NCBI GenBank assembly: GCA_964653975.1
Contig: CAZZIG010000070.1
Location: forward strand, 3,198 to 67,197
Source: an uncultured Acidimicrobiaceae bacterium
Lineage (GTDB): Bacteria; Actinomycetota; Acidimicrobiia; Spongiisociales; ZC4RG35
Length of the DNA: 64,000 bases
Direction of reading: 5' to 3'
How positions within the stretch are numbered: the stretch's first letter is position 1; every line of letters begins with the position of its first letter. Of this stretch, positions 10,064 through 61,615 are shown piece by piece. Below the pieces are notes generated by a model, which worked only from the letters and a program-made list of their open reading frames with translations, had not been told where the DNA came from and made no database searches. Position numbers and translations under genes: made by a program.

Positions 10064-10153
10064 GACCCAGAAGCTATGGAAACGGGTCACCGATGTCGTC
10101 TGCGGGATGGAGCATTCCACCGATACTCCGTTTGGAGTATCGGGCGAGAGGAC

Positions 10154-10831
10154 CTACTCCAGACGGACCAGACCGGCGCCGTAGGCGATTGCCGCCGCCT
10201 GGCCGCGGCTGGGCACACCCAGCTTGGTGAGCACGCGGGACACGTGGGTCTTGGCGGTCAGCTCCGAGATCGTGAGTCGCGCGGCGATCTCCCGATTGGA
10301 GCACCCAAGACCCACCAATTCGAGCACTTCACGTTCCCGGGCGGTCAAAGCTTCGATGACGTCGACGGCAGGGGACGAAACCGGGCGACGCGCCTGGACC
10401 AGATGATCGACGAGACGTCGGGTGGTTTGGGGCGAGATGACGGCACCCCCGGACGCCGCCGCCCGGACCGCCTCGATGAGCTGGGCAGGGGGCGTGTCCT
10501 TGACGAGGAAGCCGGCCGCACCCGCCTCCAGGGCGTCGAAGACGTTGTCGTCGGTGTCGAATGTGGTGAGGATCAGAACCTCGGGTGGGTGGTCGAGGTC
10601 GCGGATGCGCCGGGTGGCTTCGATGCCGTTGCTCCCCGGCATCCGGATGTCCATGAGCACGACGTCGGGTCGACTCGCCACCACCTCGGCCACGGCGGCA
10701 TTGCCACTGTCGGCCTCGGCTACGACCTCGATGTCGTCTTCGGCGTCGAGGAGTGCCTTGAAGCCGGCCCGGACCAGCTCCTGGTCGTCGACCACCACGA
10801 CCCGGATGTTCCCGTCGGCATCGCTCATCAC
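10154..10831 (-). CDS. NarL/LuxR-family response regulator (REC + HTH)
   Basis: [20 protein letters not shown]…[17 protein letters not shown]…[45 protein letters not shown]. Confidence 0.9.
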
Positions 10832-56488: not shown

Positions 56489-57766
56489 CTACTTCCACCA
56501 CCGAAGCTTCCCTGAGTCTTCGAAACCAACACTCTCGTAGAAGGCAGCGGCATGACTGCCGTCGTCCGTCACGACACGGACTGTGTGCATCCCCGCAGCT
56601 CTCATCTCGGAGAGGCCGTGGTAGATCAAAGCTCGCCCCAAACCCCGACGTTGGAAGTCTGGATGTGTGCCAAAAGGCTCGATCTGGGCGACCCCCGAGG
56701 GATCCTTCCACCACACCATGAAAGCGGCAACCTTGCCTTGGGGCGTCACGACGACGAGATCCCGGTCCGGCACATAGACCGGGGATCTCATGAAATTCAG
56801 ATATCGCTGTAGATGCATCGCACCGGGCATCGTCGAGCCGAAGGCCGCATGGGACGCGGCCCGGCGCGAGTTGGCCTCGGCTTCTCCCGCTACCGACCGG
56901 AGGGCCCATCCTCTGGGCAGGTCCGGACGGGGAATCCGGCGGGTGGCCAGGTCCCACCGATGGACGCTGTGGACGTACGTCGGCTCATAGCCATCACGCT
57001 CCAACTCGTCGATGAGCGCTCGATCCTCATCAGCGACCCAACCGATCTCCCCCGCCCCGCCAAGACGTCGTTGTGACCACCGGATCAGTGGCATCCGGTC
57101 GGCACCGGGGCGGGTGAACACGCCGACCTCGCCGTCATGGGGGCCTCGGGTGTCGATCGTGGCGAAGCCCGAGTCGCCGTGGATCCAGGTGGAGAAGTGG
57201 TCTGGGAACCGGGGGTCGTCGTGGTAAAGCCACCACGAATAGTCCCCGGGGTGGATGTAATAGGGCCCGTCCCCCACTCTCAAGCCGTCCGAGAGGATCG
57301 AGTGGATCAGTTGGAGGTCGTCGCGGGTGGCCGGTCGGATCCCGGGTGCGATCGGATCAGGGTTTGAATCCACCTCCAGATGCGCGGTGTCCAGGCCGTG
57401 GCTCGATGCTCCGAGAACCGCCATGGCCACATACCAGTCGTATGGGGGTCCCGGATGCGGCCCGCCTTCGAAACTGTATGTGAGAACTGCCTCACCGTCG
57501 ACTGTGACGACTAGCGGCGTGTACCCCGGCTCTGCCGAGTCGAGTGCATGTCGCTCATCATCCGCTACGTCGTATATGACACCGGGAGTGGCTGCGGCGG
57601 GATCTGGACGGATGTTGAGTTTCGCCGACCCATCATCGGATGGCTTGTCGTAGGCCACCCTCCAGCCTTCGAGAGTGCCCGTGGCCACCGCGGTCGCCGA
57701 GGCGCAGCGGCTTCTCATCTGGGGGACCCAGAGATTCGAGCCGTACGCGAAATAGCGAAACGTCAA
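56489..57766 (-). CDS. fusion protein: N-terminal gamma-glutamyl-cyclotransferase (AIG2/GGCT-like) plus C-terminal GNAT acetyltransferase (MshD-like tandem fold)
   Basis: N-terminus MTFRYFAYGSNLWVPQM (GGCT YGSNL motif); C-terminus …GVAQIEPFGTHPDFQRRGLGRALIYHGL… GNAT acetyl-CoA motif. Confidence 0.65.
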   Translation of the reverse strand: MTFRYFAYGSNLWVPQMRSRCASATAVATGTLEGWRVAYDKPSDDGSAKLNIRPDPAAATPGVIYDVADDERHALDSAEPGYTPLVVTVDGEAVLTYSFEGGPHPGPPYDWYVAMAVLGASSHGLDTAHLEVDSNPDPIAPGIRPATRDDLQLIHSILSDGLRVGDGPYYIHPGDYSWWLYHDDPRFPDHFSTWIHGDSGFATIDTRGPHDGEVGVFTRPGADRMPLIRWSQRRLGGAGEIGWVADEDRALIDELERDGYEPTYVHSVHRWDLATRRIPRPDLPRGWALRSVAGEAEANSRRAASHAAFGSTMPGAMHLQRYLNFMRSPVYVPDRDLVVVTPQGKVAAFMVWWKDPSGVAQIEPFGTHPDFQRRGLGRALIYHGLSEMRAAGMHTVRVVTDDGSHAAAFYESVGFEDSGKLRWWK

Positions 57767-58311
57767 TCTGGGATCCAGCCCTCCAGCGGTATCCCGAGAC
57801 CGTCGGCGATCCGGTTGGCGTATGCGAAGTAGCCGACCACCTCCACGATGTGGAGGATGTCGAGGTCGCCGAATCCCGCCTGGCGCAGTGCGACCACGTC
57901 CCCTTCCTCGACCTCGGCCGGGGCCCGGGTCAGTTTCGAGGCGTAACGCAACATCGTCTTCCGCTTCTCGCTGATACCGGCAGTCTCGAAATCGGAGACG
58001 ATCGCCTCGGCCAGATCGTCGTCACGGAGGAGACGGCGCAGACCGCGCCGGTGATGGGTCACTCAGTAGTGACACTCGTTGATCTGTGACACCACCACGG
58101 CGATCATCTCCCGGTCCACCTTGCGCAGTGACTTCGTGCCCTTCATCGCCTGGCGGTACAAGATGTCGTGGGCCGAGAGGCTGCCGGCATCGAGAGCGTG
58201 GATGCGCATGATCCAATCCACACGGTCGTAGTTGGGATCGGTCACCCGAGGCTTGAGATCATCGAACTCCGGGCCCCAATCGTCCTCATGGGGCGCTTCG
58301 ATCCATGGCAT
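57763..58311 (-). CDS. carboxymuconolactone decarboxylase / AhpD-like peroxidase-related family protein with an in-frame TGA at the second active-site Cys (candidate selenoprotein, C-H-Y-U motif)
   Basis: Track ORFs 58063..58311 and 57763..58062 are contiguous in one frame, separated only by TGA (58063-58065): …AVVVSQINECHY-TGA-VTHHRRGL…, matching the family motif …EINGCxYCVxxH… with TGA in place of the second Cys. The C-terminus …GYFAYANRIADGLGIPLEGW matches the family's …NYFNRVAGTEIDFP. Confidence 0.6.
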
Positions 58312-58324
58312 CGGGTGAAGATAC

Positions 58325-59596
58325 CTAGCCGATATCGCGAGCGAGCAGGTCGTCGTAGGTCTCCCGTCGGATCACCTGACGGACCTGACCGTCTTTGACG
58401 AAGACCACCGGTGGACGCAGCACCATGTTGTAGTTTGAGCCCATCGAATGCCCGTAGGCGCCGGTGACCGGTGTGGCGAGGGTGTCATCGAGACGAAGAT
58501 CGGCGGGGACCTTGCCTTCCCACACGATCACGTCACCCGACTCGCAGTGTTTCCCCACGAGCCGGATCTCCCGGTCTCGGTCCGAGGTCGTCGCCCGGGG
58601 GAGAAAGACCTCGTAGCCGCTGCCGTAGAGCACCGGTCGAGGGTTGTCGCTCATCCCACCGTCCACCGAGACGTAAGTGCGGACCCCCGGTATCTCCTTG
58701 ATGGTCCCTGCCGTGTAGAGGGTTATGGCCGACCGGGCCACGATGGCTCGTCCTGGCTCAGCCGTGATCCGCTGGCTGATCCCGGCCGACTCTGCCGCGG
58801 CCCGGATCGTCTCTCCCCATTCGGTGATCGTCGGGGCAGTCTCACCTTCGACGTACGGGACACCCAACCCTCCCCCTATCGACAACTCGGTCACGTCGAT
58901 CGGCGCCACGAATCCGGCCAGGGTCTCGACGGCTTTCGAGAAGGAGGAGACATCGAAGACCTGACTCCCGACGTGGGCGTGGATGCCGACGAGTTCGAGG
59001 GCGTCCGCCGCCTCGATGCGTTCGACGGCGGCTGCGGCCAATCCGCCCGCTATCGAGACACCGAACTTCGAGTCGGTGGCACCGGTTTGGAGAAAGTCGT
59101 GGGTGTGCGCCTCGATCCCGGGGTTGATGCGGAGCATGACTCTCGCTCCCTTCGAACGATGCTGAAGCACCTCCTCGAGTCTGTCGATCTCCGGCACCGA
59201 GTCGATGACGATCCGGCCCACCCCGTCCTCGACAGCGGTGGCGAGCTCCCGGGTCGACTTGTTGTTGCCGTGGAAGATCAACCTCTCCGCGGGGACTCCG
59301 GCAGCCAGGGCCACATGGATCTCGCCACCGGTGGAGACGTCGAGATCCATGCCCTCCTCGACTGCCAACCTCGCCATCGCTGTGCAGAGGAAGGCCTTGG
59401 TTGCGTAGGCCACCCCGTCGGGGAAAGCAGCCACTGCCTCCCGACAGCGGGAACGGATGTGATCCTCGTCGTATACGAAGAGCGGGGTGCCGTATTCGGT
59501 GGCCAGGTCGATGACGTCGCAACCCGCCACCATGAGCCGACCACCGGCATCGGTGGAGGCGTTGTCGGGCAGCAGACTCCAGGGAAGAACGCTCAT
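58325..59596 (-). CDS. lysA: diaminopimelate decarboxylase
   Basis: …AYATKAFLCTAMARLAVEEG (PLP Lys) …GGGLGVPY…CESGDV… are LysA signatures. Confidence 0.88.
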   Translation of the reverse strand: MSVLPWSLLPDNASTDAGGRLMVAGCDVIDLATEYGTPLFVYDEDHIRSRCREAVAAFPDGVAYATKAFLCTAMARLAVEEGMDLDVSTGGEIHVALAAGVPAERLIFHGNNKSTRELATAVEDGVGRIVIDSVPEIDRLEEVLQHRSKGARVMLRINPGIEAHTHDFLQTGATDSKFGVSIAGGLAAAAVERIEAADALELVGIHAHVGSQVFDVSSFSKAVETLAGFVAPIDVTELSIGGGLGVPYVEGETAPTITEWGETIRAAAESAGISQRITAEPGRAIVARSAITLYTAGTIKEIPGVRTYVSVDGGMSDNPRPVLYGSGYEVFLPRATTSDRDREIRLVGKHCESGDVIVWEGKVPADLRLDDTLATPVTGAYGHSMGSNYNMVLRPPVVFVKDGQVRQVIRRETYDDLLARDIG

Positions 59597-59689
59597 CAGC
59601 GTGGAGATGGTGCCACACCGCGAACCCCGGGTTGCACACGTCGCTCAGCGGTGTCTGGAACCCTGGGTTCGAGAATGCCGCCCGAAGAT

Positions 59690-60454
59690 CTAATTGCTGA
59701 AGGTGACCGAGAACGCCGGGGCCCAGCGGGTGACCACTCGGCCGTAGCACTCCCCGGCTCGCATCATGTCCCCGGCCTCGAGGGCGTCGAGTGACTCCTT
59801 GACCTGCTCGCACGAGTCATCGAGGACCAGTTCCTTCGGGTCGAAGAGCTCGGAAACTGACCCATAGTCGAGCTCCAGCATCGACCCTTCGGGAAAGGGC
59901 TCCAGCCATGCGAGCACCTGGCTCAACTCCTCAGCAGGACCGACGAAAACCGCCAACTTCGTGAGGATCTCATATGCCCTCCTCACCCGTCGCCGGGCCT
60001 CGTCGATGTCGGTCCGGAACCTGAGACGGGGTCCTTCGGGTCCCTCGTAGATCTCCTTCTCCGAGGGCTCGAACGCCGAAAACCACCGCACCGGGACATG
60101 CCAAGCCGAGGTGAGGATGTGAGACCGGTGTTCGGGGTGGTTCCGGTGATAGGCCTTCAATTCTCGGTCGGCAGCCTGGGCGGCACCCTCGGGGATCAAC
60201 CCCGCGCCGAGACCGCGAAATGCGTTGGCAAAGGCGACCGTGGACTCCAGGACACGCAACCGCAGATTGCGGGGACAGACCAGCCGACGCCCCTCCCACT
60301 CGACCGTCCAGTGGCTATCACCCTCGTCTTCGGAGAGGATGCCATAGGTGCGGACGAAGCCGGGCACAGGGTCGCTGGAGCCGGAGACTTCCGGCGAGTA
60401 CACCCTCAGGAAAGCCGATTTCGTCACCCGACCATCCTTGCACATGAGACTCAC
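59690..60454 (-). CDS. conserved hypothetical protein
   Basis: 254-aa ORF with protein-like composition; no family recognised. Confidence 0.4.
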   Translation of the reverse strand: MSLMCKDGRVTKSAFLRVYSPEVSGSSDPVPGFVRTYGILSEDEGDSHWTVEWEGRRLVCPRNLRLRVLESTVAFANAFRGLGAGLIPEGAAQAADRELKAYHRNHPEHRSHILTSAWHVPVRWFSAFEPSEKEIYEGPEGPRLRFRTDIDEARRRVRRAYEILTKLAVFVGPAEELSQVLAWLEPFPEGSMLELDYGSVSELFDPKELVLDDSCEQVKESLDALEAGDMMRAGECYGRVVTRWAPAFSVTFSN

Positions 60455-60532
60455 AAACTGCCCGGGGCGCTTTGTGCGAAGCGCCGGTAAGATCCAAAGT
60501 CACCCCGTTCGAGATTCGAGGAGGTCAGAACC

Positions 60533-61615
60533 TTGGGTGTATTCGACGTCGTAGCAAAGGAGGGCTATGAGCAGATCCTTTACGGCTACGACGATGTATC
60601 TGGCCTCAAGGCGATTATCGCCATACACAGCACGGCATTGGGTCCCGCTCTAGGCGGGACTCGTTTTTTTCCGTACGAATCCGAGGAGGATGCGCTCCAC
60701 GACGTCCTCCGACTCGCCAAGGGCATGACCTACAAGGCGGCGGCCGCCGGGCTCGACCTCGGTGGTGGGAAAGCGGTGATCATCGGCGACCCGCGTGAGG
60801 ACAAGAGCGAACGTCTCTTCCGCGCCTACGGCCGCATCGTCGACTCGCTGCAAGGCCGCTACATAACCGCCGAGGATGTCGGGACGACCACCAACGACAT
60901 GGACATCGTCCGGAGAGAGACGAGGTGGGCACTGGGGAGTTCCGTGGCGTTGGGTGGATCGGGCGACCCGTCCCCGGTCACGGCGCGCGGGCTCTATGCC
61001 GCCACCCGGGCGGTGGCACAGAAGCTGTGGGGCGACACCGACCTCGCCGGTCGCCGCTTCGCCGTCCAAGGCGTGGGCAAGGTGGGCACGGCGTTCGTGC
61101 AACTACTCGTCGAGCATCGGGCAGAGGTCGTGGTCACCGATGCCTACGAACGCGCCATCGAGTCGGCGGTGGAGACGTATGGGGTCAAGCCCGTCGACCC
61201 CGACGAGATCTACGAGGTCGACTGTGACTTCTTCTCGCCATGTGCACTCGGAGCAGGTTTGAACGAGACGACCATCCCACAGCTGGGCTGTCGGGCCATC
61301 GTAGGCAGTGCCAACAATCAACTGGCCACGGACGAAGACGCCGACCGCCTGGCCGCTCGGGGCATCCTCTACGCCCCGGACTTCGTCGTCAACGCCGGTG
61401 GCTTGATCAACGTCTACGACGAGCTCAACGGGTATTCGAAGACCCGGGCGATGCACCGGGTCGACTCGATCTTCGACGCCACTCTCAAGATCCTCGAGAC
61501 GGCCGAGGAACACGGGATCAACCCGAATCAGGCTGCGTTGAAGGTGGCCGACGACCGCATCAGGGACATTGGCGATCTGCGCAGGTTCCGCCGCAGTGGC
61601 GAGGACAGGAACTGA
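60533..61615 (+). CDS. Glu/Leu/Phe/Val dehydrogenase family: leucine/valine dehydrogenase-like
   Basis: …AIHSTALGPALGGTRFFPYESEEDALHDVLRLAKGMTYKAAAAGLDLGGGKAVIIGDP… (catalytic Lys box) …AVQGVGKVG…. Confidence 0.85.
   Translation: MGVFDVVAKEGYEQILYGYDDVSGLKAIIAIHSTALGPALGGTRFFPYESEEDALHDVLRLAKGMTYKAAAAGLDLGGGKAVIIGDPREDKSERLFRAYGRIVDSLQGRYITAEDVGTTTNDMDIVRRETRWALGSSVALGGSGDPSPVTARGLYAATRAVAQKLWGDTDLAGRRFAVQGVGKVGTAFVQLLVEHRAEVVVTDAYERAIESAVETYGVKPVDPDEIYEVDCDFFSPCALGAGLNETTIPQLGCRAIVGSANNQLATDEDADRLAARGILYAPDFVVNAGGLINVYDELNGYSKTRAMHRVDSIFDATLKILETAEEHGINPNQAALKVADDRIRDIGDLRRFRRSGEDRN

Follow-up and report, generated by a model that had tools for sequence, protein, structure and literature searches.

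The DNA analysed here, 64,000 nucleotides of contig CAZZIG010000070.1 (assembly GCA_964653975.1, an uncultured Acidimicrobiaceae bacterium; hereafter the window), carries on its minus strand an AhpD-like gene of 182 codons that very probably is a live, selenocysteine (Sec)-encoding gene, as judged by comparing its sequence with those of its relatives. Its single in-frame TGA, codon 83, takes the place of the second cysteine of a CxxC redox motif, and Sec insertion at this UGA is predicted on the same grounds. The case is built on comparative data, among them the occupancy of the TGA column among homologues, the covariation of a hairpin just downstream, and purifying selection on both sides of the TGA; with these, the reading as a CxxU selenoprotein that was proposed in an initial annotation of this DNA from its letters alone is upheld. 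The features concerned are as follows.

57763..58311, minus strand: AhpD-like / peroxidase-related enzyme gene, 182 codons including Sec83, terminal TGA at 57765..57763 (from sequence and translation).
58063..58065, minus strand: in-frame TGA, codon 83, putatively read as Sec (from the comparison of TGA and TGC at this column).
58063..58074, minus strand: redox motif C80-H81-Y82-U83 (CxxU); C80 is invariant, and the CxxC of PDB entries 2pfx and 3c1l aligns with it.
58108..58110, minus strand: codon of Glu68, which with the His87 codon (58053..58051) completes E-x11-C-x2-U-x3-H.
58034..58050, minus strand: hairpin of the selenocysteine insertion sequence (SECIS) type, with 5' arm CGGCGC (58050..58045), loop GGUCU (58044..58040) and 3' arm GCGCCG (58039..58034).

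Translation of the minus strand from 58311 to 57763 gives an ATG start, a terminal TGA and one internal stop only, the TGA at 58065..58063, within the peptide SQINE-C80-H-Y-[TGA]-V-T-H-H-R-R-G-L-R-R. The initial annotation had described a continuous frame of 182 codons broken by this one TGA; its coordinates, the codon number and the C-H-Y context were all reproduced by translation, and both sides of the TGA are free of further lesions. That annotation had also placed the product in the carboxymuconolactone decarboxylase (CMD)/AhpD family, and this assignment stands, with scores above cutoff for both TIGR01926 ('peroxidase-related enzyme'; 143 bits vs. a cutoff of 81.8, residues 2-175 of 182, with the TGA replaced by Cys) and PF02627 (CMD; 43.5 bits vs. 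23). The cutoff was not reached for canonical AhpD (TIGR00777, 20.2 bits vs. 191.95), nor for NF041238 (AhpD_rel_CFYUT (seleno)protein, 51.9 bits vs. 175), which is a different AhpD-related selenoprotein subfamily from that of the window gene. Residues E68, C80, H86 and H87 were invariant in an alignment of 27 homologues (A3), and the spacing E-x11-C-x2-U-x3-H is that of the AhpD catalytic motif.

A protein search returned 548 relatives, the best 120 clusters of which (P-numbers below) supplied the details reported here, and 35 loci (L-numbers; further loci retrieved are numbered likewise) were obtained by scanning the species representatives of GTDB, nearly all of them from metagenome-assembled genomes (MAGs) of Acidimicrobiia or Actinomycetota. 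Codon 83 was TGA in all 31 orthologue loci that cover the site (32 of 32 when the window is counted together with L001-L031), with the flanking frames intact, and among those 31 it was never TAA or TAG. Distant Sec forms also have TGA, namely L045 (54% identity) and the low-G+C L039 (45% identity), for 34 TGA loci in total. Homologues otherwise carry Cys at this column: seven close full-length clusters do so at about 70% identity (P0001-P0007), with TGC in all three that were checked at the DNA level (L036-L038), as do the proteins of PDB 2pfx and 3c1l. The earlier claim that the TGA falls on the second catalytic Cys is borne out by this distribution.

Most database copies of the gene are incomplete. 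Among the best 120 clusters, 93 are fragments of 100-103 residues that comprise the C-terminal 54% of the protein and start with 'MTHHRRG' from a GTG adjoining the TGA, which means that the orthologues have been systematically split by gene callers. Full-length entries also occur in which the active site reads CHYW (P0009-P0012, P0024, P0027 and similar), and the DNA at that codon is TGA (L039, L045); these entries arose because metagenome gene callers chose, for short contigs, a code in which TGA is Trp. Across 23 full-length orthologues the pairwise ratio of nonsynonymous to synonymous change (pN/pS) was 0.29 for codons 1-82 and 0.35 for codons 84-182, indicating that both halves are translated and under purifying selection, much as the initial annotation had supposed when it called the two halves conserved and the gene live.

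Twelve nucleotides past the TGA begins the hairpin, with six base pairs and a five-nucleotide loop in both the minimum-free-energy and the centroid fold, so that the CGGCGC/GCGCCG stem and GGUCU loop described in the initial annotation were recovered at the position given there. It encodes the peptide R88-R89-G90-L91-R92-R93. We aligned 31 sequences from the TGA onward (alignment A2), where the helix extends to seven pairs (15-21/27-33); 96.6% of its cells were paired, vs. 21-56% in slid registers, and the hairpin was present in 31 of 31 orthologues. Compensatory double changes were found at three of the seven pairs (GC to AU at 18/30, CG to UA at 21/27 and CG to UA at 15/33; 12 cells), and not one of 500 shuffles reached the observed covariation score. 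The hairpin positions that vary are all synonymous third codon positions. The codon for Gly90, in the loop, is GGT in 22 of 23 orthologues, against a background of 22% of the Gly codons elsewhere in the same genes, and the distant L039 encodes a different peptide here (HHGEGLLKL) yet forms a GGU-loop hairpin at the same distance. As far as alignments can tell, the hairpin is an RNA element and not merely a peptide-coding stretch. 

The form of the hairpin agrees with what has been described for bacterial SECIS elements, namely a stem-loop that follows the UGA immediately and whose apical loop is small and contains G (PMC1088965). In Escherichia coli fdhF the TGA is followed by 18 nucleotides and then GGTCT, an arrangement matched in the fdhF of 5,413 E. 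coli genomes (100%); the resemblance that the initial annotation had pointed to proved correct, both in the distance and in the loop. The two elements have in common the 18 nucleotides from UGA to loop, the GGUCU loop itself, its frame (Gly-Leu at +7/+8) and a G+C-rich stem closing the loop. They differ in that the fdhF stem is longer and bulged, whereas the window hairpin has 6-7 conserved pairs with no evident bulge or lower stem, and SelB binding to it is a prediction. The bulge in the fdhF SECIS stem is a U. A second hairpin in the window gene, GUCACU-ACUG-AGUGAC (58060..58077, minus strand), encloses the UGA at its loop/stem junction; it is not conserved in the orthologues and is probably fortuitous.

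The Cys forms, which have TGC, keep the peptide RRGL(R/Q)R, and their hairpins are in different states: intact in L036, with one mismatch in the closing pair in L037, and with a broken stem and the loop GGAUU in L038. Decay of this kind would be the expected direction if the hairpin were needed only for UGA, as far as three sequences can indicate. These look like fossil SECIS elements after replacement of Sec by Cys, and the SECIS may have imposed R-R-G-L-R-R on the protein, the peptide surviving as a molecular fossil in Cys-reverted lineages. The three loci (sample ERZ25039492; P0001, P0002 and P0006) have other gene contexts, with ApbE, a sulfate transporter and an extracytoplasmic function (ECF) sigma factor.

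For the decoding machinery, E. coli SelA, SelB and SelD queries were run with phmmer against the six-frame open reading frames (ORFs) of the window and of all loci. SelA and SelB matches were found in L031 only, and SelD matched nothing in the window or in any locus. L031 holds an orthologue of 61% identity in which both TGA and hairpin are present, with selA (TIGR00474, 393 bits) and selB (TIGR00475, 341 bits) lying 4.3 kb upstream on the same contig; its AhpD-like gene follows the selA-selB block and is not in the lysA operon described below. Homologues of the L031 SelA are numerous, several of them named by NCBI as Acidimicrobiia proteins. Operons of selA and selB are widespread in Acidimicrobiia MAGs; those at 2561..5676 in L031 and at about 10001..13100 in L040, L041, L043, L046 and L049 share a conserved neighbourhood (Mrp/ParA Fe-S assembly ATPase, M23 peptidases, selA, selB, WhiB, NfeD, a response regulator and CNNM/CorC), which suggests that the Sec trait is old in Acidimicrobiia. 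Neither tRNA-Sec nor selD was seen in any retrieved locus, including the 10 kb around the selA-selB operons. Because the SelA-bearing contigs and the TGA loci come from all-different assemblies, the evidence for both in one genome is that from L031.

A recoded genetic code is excluded by the use of TGA as an ordinary stop, since it ends five of ten checked window genes, the AhpD-like gene itself among them. ARAGORN reported a 'tRNA-Pyl' (anticodon CTA) at 60616..60693 (plus strand), inside the amino-acid dehydrogenase ORF listed below, where the Rfam tRNA model was negative. This call comes from an 11-bp hairpin plus T7 (60639..60673) encoding the motif GPALGGTRFF, and the same false call was made in L029 (7369..7447, minus strand); it is a recurrent false positive, neither a suppressor tRNA nor tRNA-Sec. 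We also scanned the window for other selenoproteins, as in-frame TGA codons with coding-type codon-position G+C on both sides, and rejected two further candidates as pairs of adjacent same-frame genes (AHSA1-like with LuxR, and ECF sigma with anti-sigma).

Several observations weigh against decoding of codon 83 as Sec. No selA, selB, selD or tRNA-Sec was detected within the 64-kb window, whose tRNAs are only tRNA-Asp and tRNA-Phe, in agreement with the initial annotation, and the presence of selABCD in this genome must therefore be inferred. Taken as a single sequence, the hairpin is no more stable than its dinucleotide shuffles (z = -0.43, at 65% G+C), so that the case for it is a comparative one; there too, the RRGLRR peptide is itself conserved, and part of the nucleotide conservation could thus reflect protein constraint. 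No Rfam SECIS family matched 57000..61500 even at E <= 10, where only noise hits were returned, although this is weak negative evidence given that Rfam SECIS models are insensitive to bacterial elements (Actinomarina preprint, 10.64898/2026.04.03.716425). L044 (JAJRYI010000263.1 2501..3049; P0008; 58% identity) has TTA, for Leu, at the Sec codon, one base from TGA; its hairpin is intact and includes a further compensated pair (CGUCGC-GGUCU-GCGACG), and the TTA, found on a single contig, reflects either an error of assembly or an inactivating mutation of G to T that happened recently. The neighbour L033 (CAZLEQ010000002.1 10001..10265, uncultured Acidimicrobiaceae) has lost the AhpD-like gene: the remnant bears a 1-nucleotide frameshift, its 'VDWIM' is gone, and a large internal deletion has removed the CxxU/SECIS region, while the flanking genes are kept (LysA at 84.6% identity, the dehydrogenase at 87%). 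This is a natural loss of the selenoprotein, and its pattern of true decay has no counterpart in the window gene. Together L044 and L033 imply that the residue and the gene are dispensable in some lineages.

Other explanations of the internal TGA have to account for the same data. Translation might stop at the UGA and restart at the GTG of codon 84, giving polypeptides of 82 and 99 residues that assemble non-covalently. Such a GTG does follow the TGA in the window and in 19 of 23 full-length orthologues, and gene callers do annotate the C-terminal half as a 100-residue protein beginning 'MTHHRRG', but the next codon is ATC, ACG, ATT, GTA or GTT, none usable as a start, in L004, L008, L017, L018, L028, L031, L039 and L045. 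Nor would a split gene explain why the stop is always TGA and never TAA or TAG, or why it is followed by a covarying hairpin with the loop and spacing of fdhF; moreover, with the TGA exactly at the column of the catalytic Cys, the nucleophile would be lost, and the break would come at the start of the core helix of a one-domain fold. We consider a split gene very improbable. We give equally little credence to a UGA that is read through or reassigned to Trp, Gly or Cys, for instance by near-cognate suppression boosted by the hairpin. Hairpins can stimulate read-through in general, and 'W' stands at this column in P0009-P0012, P0024 and P0027; these entries are gene-caller artefacts over a TGA in the DNA, however, and TGA terminates half of the ten window genes checked, including this one. 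An enzyme with Trp or Gly in place of the nucleophile would be inactive, the GGUCU loop is of the SelB-binding type, and the lineage has selA and selB, which in L031 lie near the orthologue.

Decay is the remaining alternative, in which a nonsense mutation has struck a former Cys-type AhpD-like gene. TGA is a one-base change from TGC or TGT, no Sec machinery is visible in the window, and real decay of the gene does occur in L033. Against this, the same TGA is found in more than 30 species-level relatives, the half downstream of it has a pN/pS of 0.35 with no other lesion, and the hairpin is maintained by covariation at synonymous sites; the decayed L033 gene, with its frameshift and two deletions, looks nothing like that of the window. 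A pseudogene is thus extremely unlikely.

The Sec-encoding gene that we favour over these alternatives lies in a conserved gene cluster, of which the other members in the window are as follows.

56489..57766, minus strand: fusion of GGACT (gamma-glutamylcyclotransferase-like) and GNAT acetyltransferase, downstream of the AhpD-like gene (PF06094, PF00583).
58325..59596, minus strand: lysA (diaminopimelate decarboxylase; TIGR01048, 428.8 bits), upstream, with a 13-nucleotide gap to the AhpD-like ATG.
59690..60454, minus strand: ORF of 254 amino acids, with the dehydrogenase on one side and lysA or the ahpD-like gene on the other.
60533..61615, divergent: amino-acid dehydrogenase ORF.

The 254-residue ORF has no Pfam or NCBIfam match and is conserved, at 60-85% identity and in the same position, in about 27 Acidimicrobiia loci. 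The order of divergent dehydrogenase, 254-residue protein, lysA, AhpD-like gene and GGACT-GNAT fusion is kept in most loci; lysA is absent from the cluster in about half of them, and the synteny with lysA recurs in 14 loci besides the window. No terminator-like site was found between the operon genes on the minus strand. At the other end, the stop codon of the AhpD-like gene and the TTG start of the next gene overlap by 4 nucleotides (ATTGA, 57763..57766), and the same abutting arrangement with GGACT-GNAT occurs in L001, L002, L006, L010 and L015. Translation of the GGACT-GNAT gene may therefore depend on ribosomes that have passed the Sec codon, a coupling that the overlap makes plausible.

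The protein matches PDB entries 2pfx and 3c1l (E = 1e-30, residues 31-172), whose CxxC falls on C80 and TGA83. As a structural proxy we used the AlphaFold (AF2) model of the Cys form P0001, which is 70% identical to the window protein. The model (predicted local distance difference test score 92.9, predicted template modelling score 0.88) is a single helical domain that runs across the site, with the motif at the start of helix 81-95; the TGA thus lies mid-domain at the active site, and the two halves cannot be independent domains. Template modelling (TM) scores were 0.84-0.87 over about 175 residues for 3c1l, 2pfx, 2prr and 6k40, and about 0.5 for Mycobacterium tuberculosis AhpD (1knc, 1gu9). 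An AhpC partner gene was not found near the AhpD-like gene of the window.

In the AhpD mechanism the second Cys of CxxC is the nucleophile, and in the window protein Sec83 would stand in its place. We propose that SelB would be recruited by the hairpin CGGCGC-GGUCU-GCGCCG within the coding sequence, whose loop starts 18 nucleotides after the UGA, and that codon 83 would then be decoded as Sec by SelB·GTP·Sec-tRNA(Sec). The product, as modelled, would be one compact all-helical domain with the active site E68...C80-x-x-U83...H87 at a helix N-terminus. Such an enzyme would most likely cycle between a selenolate/thiol and a selenenylsulfide state, reducing peroxide or else a peroxiredoxin-type or disulfide partner; its activity and physiological substrate are predicted here from family membership and motif.

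One may tentatively suppose that the gene has been inherited vertically as a core selenoprotein, nearly universal in a large and mostly uncultured clade of Acidimicrobiia, fixed in the lysA operon and overlapping GGACT-GNAT, although we think this broader proposal rather doubtful. If it did hold, translation of the downstream GGACT-GNAT gene could be gated by selenium supply or by how efficiently Sec is decoded, and the AhpD-like gene would conveniently mark the Sec-decoding trait within Acidimicrobiia. 

Once the TGA is read as Sec, a complete redox enzyme is restored, and it would follow that these Acidimicrobiia need selenium for one antioxidant or redox function at least. Public databases hold the gene and hundreds of its orthologues in wrong forms: as 100-residue fragments called 'hypothetical protein' or 'peroxidase', with a spurious Trp at the active site, or with the N-terminal half missing. 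The group also offers a clean natural example of a SECIS constraining both codon choice and peptide, with the constraint relaxing after replacement of Sec by Cys. A known selenoprotein family is thereby extended to a broad set of uncultured, high-G+C Acidimicrobiia, and the current understanding of selenoprotein biology is unchanged.

Within TIGR01926 we also noted a distant member in a Gemmatimonadales MAG (L034, JARRMU010000042.1, ~10150..10170; 102.5 bits, 28% identity). Its frame, too, has a TGA at this column, but the motif there reads G-A-P-[TGA] and lacks the first Cys; a hairpin GGCGGC-AGUUC-GCCGCC follows 14 nucleotides downstream. This one instance might represent a family variant with Sec alone (xxxU).

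Among proteins of known structure, the Cys-type members 3c1l (Mlr4105), 2pfx, 2oyo, 2prr and 6k40 (D. radiodurans AhpD) resemble the window protein in fold and in the position of CxxC, at 33-36% identity. They differ in having Cys rather than Sec, and 'HGAAVRQL' rather than 'HHRRGLRRL' after the motif, that is, they lack the SECIS-encoding peptide. M. tuberculosis AhpD (TIGR00777; 1knc, 1gu9) shares with the window protein the E...CxxC...H motif and the superfamily, but given the TIGR00777 score below cutoff and the poor structural match, the window protein is no orthologue of it.

Selenoproteins of this kind have been described before. An AhpD-like protein (COG2128) with CxxU was reported as a new selenoprotein family from the Sargasso Sea, with 27 sequences (Zhang, Fomenko & Gladyshev 2005, PMC1088965), and two sequenced bacterial genomes were found in 2006 to encode it (PMC1794560). 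The initial annotation had called Sec-containing AhpD-like proteins rare, which does not hold: in the Global Ocean Sampling data, 'AhpD-like 1' ranked fourth in abundance among selenoprotein families, with 299 Sec and 902 Cys homologues (Zhang & Gladyshev 2008, PMC2398784). A 2026 review lists 'AhpD-like protein, TIGR01926, CxxU' (PMC13188914), and reports that Acidimicrobiia use Sec are only now appearing, for Actinomarina (10.64898/2026.04.03.716425). The published AhpD-like selenoproteins are like the window gene in belonging to TIGR01926, in a CxxU motif with Sec in second place, in having homologues with Cys at that column, and in a downstream SECIS with a small loop. Whereas those come mostly from marine metagenomes and a few genomes of Deltaproteobacteria and Clostridia, the window group belongs to high-G+C Acidimicrobiia, has a conserved lysA-linked operon, and is present in databases as 100-residue fragments that are not annotated as selenoproteins. 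What the present group adds is modestly new: the lineage, an operon position that is conserved, a SECIS with clear covariation that survives as a fossil in the Cys forms, and the extent to which databases misannotate the gene.

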